NCBI GenBank assembly: GCA_033852115.1
Contig: JAWSVE010000008.1
Location: 6,933-30,932, forward strand
Direction: 5' to 3'
DNA length: 24,000 bases
Source of the DNA: Cellvibrionaceae bacterium
GTDB taxonomy: Bacteria > Pseudomonadota > Gammaproteobacteria > Pseudomonadales > Cellvibrionaceae
How positions within the stretch are numbered: the stretch's first letter is position 1; each line of letters starts with the position of its first letter. Of this stretch, positions 7,482-8,453 are shown piece after piece. The notes under the pieces are model-generated. The model had not been told where the DNA came from. It saw only the letters and a list, made by a program, of their open reading frames with translations, and made no database searches. The translations under genes and the position numbers were made by a program.

Positions 7482-8453
7482 ATGACTTCCGATGAAATTC
7501 TTCCAGGAGTAATTGGTCGCAGTGAGGCAGTGCAATCGCTGGCAAAAAAGCTTGAAAAAATTGCGACCGCAGATAGACCCATATTTTTAAATGGGCCGAC
7601 GGGTTCAGGTAAAGAGCTTTTCGCGCGCGCGATACATGAGCTTAGTGGTCGAAAAGGGCCTTTTGTGGCCGTTAATTGTGGTGCAATTCCTGAAACGCTT
7701 TTCGAGTCATTGCTGTTTGGTCATGAGCGCGGCGCATTTACAGGCGCCGATAAAGCGCAAGATGGTTTTTTAGCTGAGGCCGCCGGTGGAACCTTGTTTT
7801 TGGATGAAATTGCCGAACTGCCGCTACTTCAACAAACGAAACTACTGCGCGTGCTAGAAACCGGCTGCTATCAGCGGATTGGTGCACAAAAGGAGCAAAA
7901 ATACACCGGTAGAACATTGGTCGCAACGCATGCAGACTTGCGGCAAAGAATTGAGGAAAAAGCGTTTCGTGAAGACCTATTTTATAGAATCAATACATTT
8001 GAAGTATCAATTCCTCCTCTTGAGGCGAGGCGCGAAGATATACCACTTTTGGCGAGCGCATTCGCTCAATCAGTTCCGGGGATAACGTTGAGCGAATGCG
8101 CTTTGCGTTATCTTCAGCGGGCCAGTTGGCCGGGTAACGTGAGACAACTGAAAAGCACGGTCGATCGAATATGTATATTGGCAGATGACTCATATATTAC
8201 GGCAAGCGCTATAGAAGCGATGCAAGAATGCCAGTTCGACGAAAAGCCATTAGAAAACGTGGCTAAAACAGCAATAGCTTTAGCGACTGGAGATAAGATT
8301 CGTGCGATGGTTGATGCGCTTGTGAATGAGGCGTTGGCGACCTCAAAAGGGAATAAAACTAAGGCGGCAGAAATGTTAGGTGTTCATAGAAAAGTTATAG
8401 AGCGGCGTTGCCAGCGTCAGTCAGAAGTTAGCCCATCGTTAGAGTTGTCTTAA
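7482..8453 (+). CDS. Sigma-54-dependent transcriptional activator (bEBP), AAA+ core plus C-terminal Fis-type HTH, no N-terminal sensory domain
   Basis: Motifs present: Walker A GPTGSGKE, the sigma-54 contact loop ERGAFTGA, Walker B LFLDEI, the FREDLFYRIN block, and C-terminal KTKAAEMLGVHRKVIERR. The AAA+ core starts within ~10 residues of the Met (VIGRSEAVQSL), as in the PspF/HrpS-type activators. Confidence 0.9.
   Translation: MTSDEILPGVIGRSEAVQSLAKKLEKIATADRPIFLNGPTGSGKELFARAIHELSGRKGPFVAVNCGAIPETLFESLLFGHERGAFTGADKAQDGFLAEAAGGTLFLDEIAELPLLQQTKLLRVLETGCYQRIGAQKEQKYTGRTLVATHADLRQRIEEKAFREDLFYRINTFEVSIPPLEARREDIPLLASAFAQSVPGITLSECALRYLQRASWPGNVRQLKSTVDRICILADDSYITASAIEAMQECQFDEKPLENVAKTAIALATGDKIRAMVDALVNEALATSKGNKTKAAEMLGVHRKVIERRCQRQSEVSPSLELS

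Follow-up and report, generated by a model that had tools for sequence, protein, structure and literature searches.

R-bodies are large protein pistons that respond to pH and harm eukaryotic cells, and to our knowledge the regulation of their genes is known in two or three species only. In Pseudomonas aeruginosa PA14 the reb genes are regulated by the sigma factor FecI2 and by RcgA (PMC8322103), and those of Azorhizobium by PraR, the TetR-type RebR and a LysR-type regulator (PMC13430693, PMC3583457). In a survey of reb synteny from 2013, one of the two synteny groups was found to contain a sigma factor and a cyclic nucleotide monophosphate (cNMP)-binding regulator, and the other to lack regulators. 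Here we analyse a reb island of a Cellvibrionaceae bacterium, contained in a stretch of 24,000 nucleotides (hereafter the window; assembly GCA_033852115.1, contig JAWSVE010000008.1, positions 6,933 to 30,932). A preliminary description of this locus had proposed control by the sigma factor RpoN (sigma-54) and a bacterial enhancer-binding protein (bEBP), and had set this apart from the regulator types of the R-body loci studied so far, a distinction that holds for both PA14 (PMC8322103) and Azorhizobium (PMC13430693, PMC3583457). Full-text searches of one literature library returned no report that connects R-bodies or reb genes with sigma-54, RpoN or a bEBP, and within the literature searched such a link appears to be unreported. 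Among bEBPs, PspF and HrpR/S are sensor-less and are controlled in trans (PMC7057263, PMC3105312).

All evidence presented here is computational. We consider it likely that a 323-aa protein encoded in the island is the dedicated sensor-less sigma-54 activator of the R-body genes and their regulon. Support for RpoN/bEBP control comes from three sides: the linkage of this bEBP to reb genes in all 11 loci compared, the presence of a predicted sigma-54 promoter before the rebB array in 10 of these 11, and a dyad motif upstream of the promoters. Domain content, motifs, their positions and their conservation are read directly from the sequences; from the same material we infer the binding of the dyad by the bEBP, the RpoN dependence of the promoters, the operon boundaries and the control layer. 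The activator gene and the motifs of its product lie as follows.

7482-8453, plus strand: sensor-less bEBP of 323 aa (open reading frame, ORF, and Pfam)
7593-7616, plus strand: Walker A, GPTGSGKE, bEBP residues 38-45
7731-7748, plus strand: GAFTGA loop, bEBP residues 84-89
7803-7808, plus strand: Walker B, DE, bEBP residues 108-109
8325-8408, plus strand: Fis-type helix-turn-helix (HTH), bEBP residues 282-309

Pfam assigned Sigma54_activat (PF00158) to residues 10-175 (E 2.6e-61), AAA_lid_14 to residues 182-246 and HTH_8 to residues 282-309, and recognised no REC, GAF, PAS or further domain in the N-terminus, where 9 residues precede the AAA+ core. Together with the ORF and the motif positions this confirms that the protein consists of an AAA+ domain with GAFTGA and an HTH, and has no receiver, GAF or PAS domain. 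Because the ORF begins at the first start codon after a stop, a longer N-terminus in frame is ruled out, and no remnant of a sensor domain was found in the 842 nt upstream of it.

This short architecture is shared by the relatives of the protein. In an alignment of 14 orthologues (51-66% identity), the AAA+ core begins in every one within about 20 residues of the N-terminus, and the residues G38, T40, G41, G43, K44, D108, E109, R163 and R169, which include those of Walker A and B and the arginine fingers, are invariant. The same is true of G84, F86, T87, G88 and A89 of the GAFTGA loop, with position 85 being A or S. The HTH (GNK..AA..LGVHRKV.ER) is almost wholly invariant and its recognition helix entirely so, which fits one shared DNA motif. 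Homologues in the protein database form a tight group of equally short proteins (317-350 aa, 52-68% identity to the bEBP), whose named hosts are Spartinivicinus, Shewanella surugensis, Idiomarina xiamenensis, Rheinheimera, Gynuella and Alteromonas; matches below about 50% identity are mostly ordinary response-regulator bEBPs of 450-490 aa, and a search of genome contigs with the bEBP returned generic bEBPs alone (34-45% identity). The protein scored below the curated cutoff of every NCBIfam equivalog, the NifA model included (for the PspF models, 223.4 against a cutoff of 443.55 bits for TIGR02974 and 190 against 529 for NF008622), which argues for a separate bEBP subfamily. Judged from the alignment, the short form is a conserved family trait that marks a distinct, reb-linked sensor-less subfamily, and not a truncation.

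The second line of evidence is the promoters. Four sites with exact GG-N10-GC geometry had been quoted for the window, and all four 16-mers read as quoted; we name these predicted promoters after the genes that follow them.

10870-10885, plus strand: Preb, predicted sigma-54 promoter TGGCATGCTTGATGCT (14.9 bits, rank 1; GG at 10871-10872, GC at 10883-10884)
13997-14012, plus strand: P406, predicted sigma-54 promoter TGGCATTCAACTTGCT (14.4 bits, rank 2; GC at 14010-14011)
13965-13950, minus strand: P169, predicted sigma-54 promoter AGGCACCTAAGTTGCA (13.4 bits, rank 3; GC at 13952-13951)
18120-18105, minus strand: P473, predicted sigma-54 promoter TGGTATCGCTTTTGCT (13.1 bits, rank 5; GC at 18107-18106)

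The scores come from a matrix that is our own approximation of the published consensus TGGCACGrNNNTTGCW and not a curated model. With this matrix, the four quoted sites took ranks 1, 2, 3 and 5 among the about 48,000 strand positions of the window, in which five sites reached at least 13 bits where 1.3 were expected from 300 dinucleotide shuffles (p about 0.017). Counts of looser consensus forms exceeded expectation only marginally (8 where 4.3 were expected, and 3 where 0.5 were), so that position and comparison between loci carry the weight. All four quoted sites lie in co-oriented intergenic DNA before transcription units of the island. Promoter space, defined as the non-coding positions that lie no more than 300 nt upstream of a gene and point towards it, makes up 7.7% of the strand positions of the window and holds four of the top five sites (binomial estimate about 2e-4). 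P169 and P406 are divergent, and only about 31 nt separate their 5' ends (about 20 nt in the closest related locus, L083). The consensus for IHF, WATCAANNNNTTR, had no match in any promoter region. The genes that the four promoters would serve are listed below.

11001-11237, plus strand: first RebB gene of the reb operon
11284-11517, plus strand: second RebB gene (Pfam RebB, E 1e-22 to 3e-24 for the three)
11561-11794, plus strand: third RebB gene
11853-12065, 12110-12409 and 12421-12753, plus strand: accessory small ORFs of the reb operon (gene calls), the operon spanning 11001-12753
13898-13389 and 13324-12860, minus strand: genes for a 169-aa and a 154-aa protein
14111-15331, plus strand: gene for a 406-aa protein with no assigned function
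15365-15886, plus strand: GNAT acetyltransferase gene (Pfam)
18011-16590, minus strand: gene for a 473-aa alpha/beta-hydrolase
15891-16109, minus strand: fourth RebB-like gene (Pfam RebB)

The predicted transcription start of Preb is near 10896, which leaves about 105 nt to the rebB ATG at 11001 (the first RebB ORF as listed runs 10989-11237). P169 would drive the 169-aa and 154-aa genes, P406 the 406-aa gene and the GNAT gene, and P473 the hydrolase gene, from which transcription may possibly extend to the RebB-like gene at 16109-15891. RebB (PF11747) has four matches in the window in all (E 1e-11 to 3e-24), and each related locus contains 3-6 RebB genes.

We compared the window with ten homologue loci (L083-L092, 17-21 kb each), of which L083 is the closest. 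The loci that contain a bEBP orthologue are reb clusters in 11 of 11 cases, with a common core order of the bEBP gene, four to six small ORFs, a tandem RebB array and small accessory ORFs, and with an AraC-type gene somewhere in the locus. The earlier statement that the bEBP heads the island is true of this window and does not extend to other loci, where an AraC-type, a GNAT or a large unknown gene precedes it. A further short bEBP that is 48% identical (L093) has two-partner-secretion and toxin genes as neighbours and no reb linkage, and therefore marks the edge of the clade. A -24/-12 site stands before the tandem rebB array in 10 of the 11 loci, with its GC 67-121 nt from the start codon, and is mostly the best or near-best sigma-54 match of its whole locus. 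Stacking of these reb-promoter sites shows conservation of TGGC and TG(C) but not of spacer and flanks, and in the comparison of the window with L083 no part of the intergenic region before rebB is better conserved than the -24/-12 block. The divergent promoter pair is also kept in L083 (region 16734-16784), where the counterpart of P169 is found at 16749 on the minus strand (13.3 bits) and that of P406 at 16769 on the plus strand (14.7 bits). Pooled over ten loci, 20 of the 30 sites with at least 13 bits fell in promoter space (7.6% of positions; binomial P about 6e-16), although this and the other pooled statistics overstate independence because the loci are homologous. Nearly all of these promoter-space sites precede island genes, namely RebB arrays, GNAT genes, minus-strand genes for proteins of 170-300 aa and genes for unknown proteins of 400-640 aa, and the GNAT genes of L086, L087 and L088 carry top-scoring sites.

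The invariance of the HTH was the reason to seek a shared motif upstream of the promoters, for which we applied expectation-maximisation (EM) motif finding to the sequence between -240 and -40 of each of 31 predicted promoters. This returned an 18-bp dyad, T-G-G-Y-n-W-W-W-T-T-C-R-n-C-C-A-G-T (TGG-N10-CCA), with a log-likelihood of 110.6; shuffled sequences reached 42-43, and sets of equal size drawn at random from real regions of these loci reached 49-63. When the whole loci were scanned, 36 dyad matches had at least 15 bits, and 27 of them were located at -300 to -20 of a predicted promoter, a zone that comprises 3.9% of the sequence. Most of the dyads have their centre 80-135 nt upstream of the 5' end of the promoter 16-mer, and at at least eight promoters two copies occur 31-32 bp apart, or about three helical turns. 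When one locus at a time was left out, the top dyad match lay within the upstream zone in 7 of 9 loci, as did 25 of the 45 top-five matches; the seed pattern for this procedure was taken from the full data, which constitutes a minor leak. In L092, which was never part of the training, the best dyad scored 20.4 bits and was found at -117 from the best sigma-54 site. The dyads of Preb and P473 are as follows, with centres counted from the 5' end of the 16-mer.

10730-10747: first of two tandem Preb dyads, ACTGGATGATAATTTCCA (20.3 bits, centre -131)
10761-10778: second Preb dyad, TATGGCCGAATTGTACCT (12.8 bits, centre -100), 31 bp from the first
18246-18265: palindromic P473 dyad, TCTGGACGTAATCAACCACT (16.4 and 14.4 bits on the two strands, centre about -135)
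18407-18426: second, weaker P473 dyad

The dyad at 10730 is the top held-out match in the window and belongs to a block that is conserved in the alignment with L083; the palindromic P473 dyad is the second-best held-out match. bEBP enhancers usually lie 100-150 bp upstream (PMC7057263), and since the distance and phasing of the dyads match those of known bEBP enhancers, the dyad fits a bEBP binding site. Its symmetry, phasing and position suggest that the bEBP, rather than the AraC-type protein, is what binds it. Simpler searches gave less: the four window promoters have no 8-10-mers in common, a search for exact inverted-repeat arms in the promoter regions found nothing, and enrichment of hexamers to octamers gave weak signals for CCGAAT and GGATGA that were later seen to be parts of the dyad. 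Two other inverted repeats were set aside as enhancers, ACCGAA-N6-TTCGGT at 13861-13878, which is not retained in L083 and whose polarity does not suit the dyad, and CTGGAT-N13-ATCCAG at 10731-10755, which merely overlaps the true dyad.

Two dyad-like sequences have additional neighbours. The one at 18407-18426 is also about 80 nt before a gene at 18503-18763, where there is no sigma-54 site, and a palindrome at 16148-16165, CGGACGTTTTCGTCCG, scores 13.7 bits as a dyad, carries a terminator-like flag and lies 39 nt upstream of the RebB-like gene at 15891-16109 on the minus strand.

Several observations, in addition to the homology of the loci, weigh against control of the island by the bEBP through these elements. 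All sigma-54 scores rest on an approximate, self-built consensus, and rpoN is not encoded in the window. P169 and P406, as well as their L083 counterparts, have no recognisable dyad within 300 nt, the best in the window reaching 8.8 bits at 14106-14123, and some strong dyad matches fall outside promoter-upstream zones, including inside the bEBP gene. Shewanella surugensis (L085) has the bEBP and no canonical sigma-54 site before its rebB arrays. The reb promoters of L088 (13858-13873, TGGCATGTTATGTGAA) and L089 (13754-13769, TGGCACATATTCTGAA) have GA, not GC, at -12; both are accompanied by strong enhancer dyads at the normal distance. Finally, the dyad could in principle be the binding site of the co-conserved AraC-type protein instead.

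The last point leads to the alternative that survives best, which concerns the following gene.

18824-19606, minus strand: AraC-type (HTH_18) regulator gene, frameshifted near 19465-19502 (Pfam HTH_18)

One of its frames extends from a GTG at 19604 to a TGA at 19467-19465, and the frame that contains the HTH is open from 19502 to 18824; in tblastn, the 222-aa homologue of L083 aligns across 19489-18881. The frameshift is either that of a pseudogene or an assembly error. In two loci the N-terminus of the AraC-type protein gave sub-threshold matches to a receiver domain (Response_reg, E 0.06-0.15). It might be argued that this regulator is the true master switch, with the dyad as its own site or as a site of joint action, and with the bEBP as a mere obligatory relay or acting from solution. 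The HTH_18 gene is indeed present in 11 of 11 loci and stands directly upstream of the bEBP gene in four (L084, L090, L091 and L092), the L083 gene is itself preceded by a sigma-54 site and two strong dyads, and the lack of a dyad at the divergent promoters means that some activation may be dyad-independent. However, only AAA+ bEBPs open sigma-54 promoters (PMC7057263). The two-fold outer symmetry of the dyad, its 31-bp phasing and its position at -100 to -160 from the start are typical of a bEBP enhancer, whereas AraC-type binding sites usually abut the -35 region. Moreover, the AraC-type gene of the window is frameshifted while the promoters and dyads are intact, and a cascade from the AraC-type protein through the bEBP to reb would complement bEBP control rather than compete with it. 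We therefore regard the AraC-type protein as an improbable master switch.

As an input to the bEBP, on the other hand, the AraC-type regulator is the best candidate that the comparison of loci suggests. A bEBP without a sensor in cis must be controlled through its amount or by a trans-acting factor, and the search of the island ORFs with Pfam and NCBIfam found no PspA_IM30, HrpV, HrpG-like or other partner family, so that a partner, if there is one, might be novel. Weak candidate sites for autoregulation lie upstream of the bEBP gene.

7181-7200 and 7212-7229: enhancer-like dyads, 31 bp apart (11.7 and 7.1 bits)
7378-7393, plus strand: sigma-54-like site AGGCACAGGATTTGAT (9.7 bits; GA instead of GC at -12)

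These sites (7181-7393) are weak in the window and absent in other loci, and were rejected as anything beyond a hint. A more far-reaching idea, which we hold to be doubtful though not as improbable as an AraC-type master switch, is that the island forms a self-contained all-or-none switch, in which the AraC-type protein (possibly with a pseudo-receiver) or a small anti-activator encoded by one of the six ORFs behind the bEBP gene would gate a constitutively active bEBP, the bEBP would feed back on its own operon via 7181-7393, and only a subpopulation of cells would fire R-bodies, together with a Tle1-like lipase cargo. If true, this would mean a new anti-activator family for sensor-less bEBPs and a mechanistic basis for the stochastic R-body expression in P. 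aeruginosa.

Far less survives of the view that the GG-N10-GC matches are due to chance or non-functional, that the bEBP controls its own operon or a distant target, and that reb is read from unrecognised sigma-70 or extracytoplasmic function (ECF) promoters. The consensus counts in the single window are barely above chance, L085 lacks a canonical site and another R-body system uses a dedicated sigma factor (PMC8322103). Yet domain search found no ECF sigma gene in the island, nor were FecI2-like or RcgA-like genes present, and sigma-70 consensus matches are depleted there (11 at positions 6600-20000, against 26 +/- 5 in shuffles), with no sigma-70-type consensus sense-upstream of the four units. 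The ranks of the four sites and their co-oriented intergenic placement, the pooled enrichment, the retention of the site position in 10 of 11 loci despite diverged spacers, and the independently discovered dyad at a fixed distance upstream of the promoters make this view very hard to sustain. That the bEBP is a decayed, non-functional remnant of an NtrC-type response regulator (a pseudogene or N-terminally truncated), to which the many database neighbours of 450-490 aa with receiver-type architecture at 45-52% identity might point, is next to incredible given an intact ORF with no reading-frame remnant upstream, an identical short architecture in 14 orthologues that are 51-66% identical, and invariant Walker A/B, GAFTGA-loop (second position Ala or Ser), arginine-finger and HTH residues.

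We thus favour direct activation of the reb island by the sensor-less bEBP, for which the following mechanism is proposed. Dimers of the bEBP would bind the 18-bp dyad through the Fis-type HTH; the dyad is typically duplicated at a spacing of 31 bp (three helical turns) and lies about 100-160 nt before the point at which transcription starts. On these dyads the AAA+ ring would assemble, loop to the RNA polymerase-sigma-54 complex at -24/-12 and open the promoter by means of its GAFTGA loop and ATP. Joint activation would thereby extend to a regulon of at least four units, comprising the rebB operon, the arm with the 169-aa and 154-aa proteins, the arm with the 406-aa protein and the GNAT, and the 473-aa hydrolase. 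An earlier tier, made along with the bEBP, would consist of the genes directly behind it.

8463-8828, 8821-9102, 9150-9497, 9506-9781, 9805-10155 and 10152-10727, plus strand: six small ORFs behind the bEBP gene (gene calls; gaps of at most 47 nt)

Because of these short gaps and the lack of any sigma-54 site with at least 11 bits in the co-oriented intergenic DNA of the block, the six ORFs are probably co-transcribed with the bEBP. None of them matches a Pfam or NCBIfam family. The block is syntenic in all related loci (four to six small ORFs each), and the ORF directly after the bEBP gene is syntenic yet only 13-18% identical across loci. Sigma-54-like sites inside this ORF in L087 and L088, TGGTACAGCA.TTGCA, were judged to be a by-product of coding for MVQQLQ and discarded.

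The 473-aa protein has about 50 homologues, all hypothetical, in which the nucleophile elbow GHSRGG is invariant. The best PDB matches of its AlphaFold model (predicted local distance difference test, pLDDT, 91.8) are Legionella lpg2422 (4m0m), P. aeruginosa 4o5p, Tle1-VgrG complexes and lipases; 4o5p is listed as an uncharacterised P. aeruginosa protein, which we take to be the type VI secretion system (T6SS) effector Tle1. The modelled fold makes this Tle1/lipase-like hydrolase a candidate lipase-type toxin that would be co-regulated with R-bodies.

Further features of the window concern the island and its surroundings. The G+C content is 40-44% in the island, compared with 48-51% in the flanks, and Rfam and tRNA scans of the window found nothing. 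Two pairs of accessory genes are paralogous, 18503-18763 with 12110-12409 (both on the plus strand) and 9506-9781 with 12421-12753 (E 2e-9 and 8e-10). The public gene caller missed the gene at 18503-18763, for which an overlap with a called ORF on the minus strand (18257-18478) was noted. The flank encodes at 850-4158 (plus strand) a single-chain acyl-CoA carboxylase of 1102 aa, in which biotin carboxylase, biotin carboxyl carrier protein (BCCP) and carboxyltransferase are fused and which is 99% identical to a protein of Aurantivibrio plasticivorans (Cellvibrionaceae), and this match points to that species or a near relative as the likely host.

The related loci also display features of their own. 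In Idiomarina (L086, 7296-10001) and Alteromonas (L089, 7226-10001), a sigma-54 site and a dyad precede a gene for an unknown protein of ~635 aa and a gene for one of ~190-220 aa, which lie upstream of the bEBP gene on the same strand; read-through into the bEBP gene would give positive feedback. At 12922, L085 contains AAGCATCAATTAAGCA, which resembles a decayed promoter and has a dyad-like site (12789-12806) about 125 nt upstream of it. A NusG paralogue and a lysozyme-like gene precede a second reb cluster in the same locus, which also has an eCIS_core gene and a transposase (L085 5554-9838, 12509-12964). In L091 (17113-20692) the reb cluster abuts genes of a contractile injection system (Pvc16_N, Phage_sheath_1 and a T4 gp19-like tube), which suggests that modules for R-bodies and for extracellular contractile injection systems (eCIS) can be linked.

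For the marine gammaproteobacterial clade of reb islands, these results provide a testable wiring diagram, in which a proposed activator, a candidate enhancer dyad and four predicted promoters are joined to a regulon with a candidate lipase toxin. Sigma-54 promoters are silent without their activator, which suits a costly and probably suicidal structure. The compact set of activator, enhancer and promoter is potentially a tight, portable expression module for engineered R-bodies. For the field it also poses a puzzle, the restraint of an activator that has no sensor and would switch on a probably lethal structure.

Comparison with described systems places the island as follows. In PA14, dedicated regulators encoded in the cluster are needed for rebP1 promoter activity (PMC8322103), and the bEBP is likewise encoded in its cluster. 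R-body genes of PA14 are co-regulated with accessory genes that are virulence-associated (PMC8322103), and co-regulation with accessory genes is also what is proposed for the window. Where PA14 employs an alternative factor of the sigma-70 family and a transcription factor, the window would employ RpoN and an AAA+ activator. The HrpR/HrpS-HrpV system of Pseudomonas syringae similarly has sensor-less bEBPs that switch on a horizontally acquired host-interaction island and are controlled in trans and at the level of expression (PMC3105312, PMC7057263). HrpR and HrpS, however, are a co-dependent pair, whereas the window contains one bEBP gene and no recognised HrpV- or HrpG-like gene, and they target a single ECF sigma gene (hrpL), whereas the bEBP is proposed to act directly on several structural operons.

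In architecture, PspF, the phage-shock activator of E. coli, is close: at about 325 aa it is of similar length, it too lacks a regulatory domain at the N-terminus and combines an AAA+ core with a C-terminal HTH, and it activates sigma-54 promoters from upstream sites, as is proposed for the bEBP. Its AAA+ domain aligns to bEBP residues 9-230 (E 1e-48). The two are nevertheless not orthologues, as both PspF models stay below cutoff and the island has no homologue of PspA (IM30); the PspF regulon consists of membrane-stress genes with a different enhancer motif, whereas the predicted targets of the bEBP are R-body and accessory genes. The bEBP thus resembles PspF and HrpR/S in function and belongs to neither family. 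NifA enhancers, TGT-N10-ACA, are 16-bp dyads located roughly at least 100 nt upstream of a -24/-12 promoter. They share with the dyad described here three conserved outer bases, a 10-nt spacer and a similar upstream placement, but have TGT/ACA arms where this dyad has TGG/CCA arms and an asymmetric conserved core, TTCR. The bEBP itself differs from NifA in that it has no GAF domain and stays below the cutoff of the NifA model. Against this background, the bEBP subfamily and the proposed regulon are new, but they belong to a kind of regulation that is already known and do not amount to a new mechanism.

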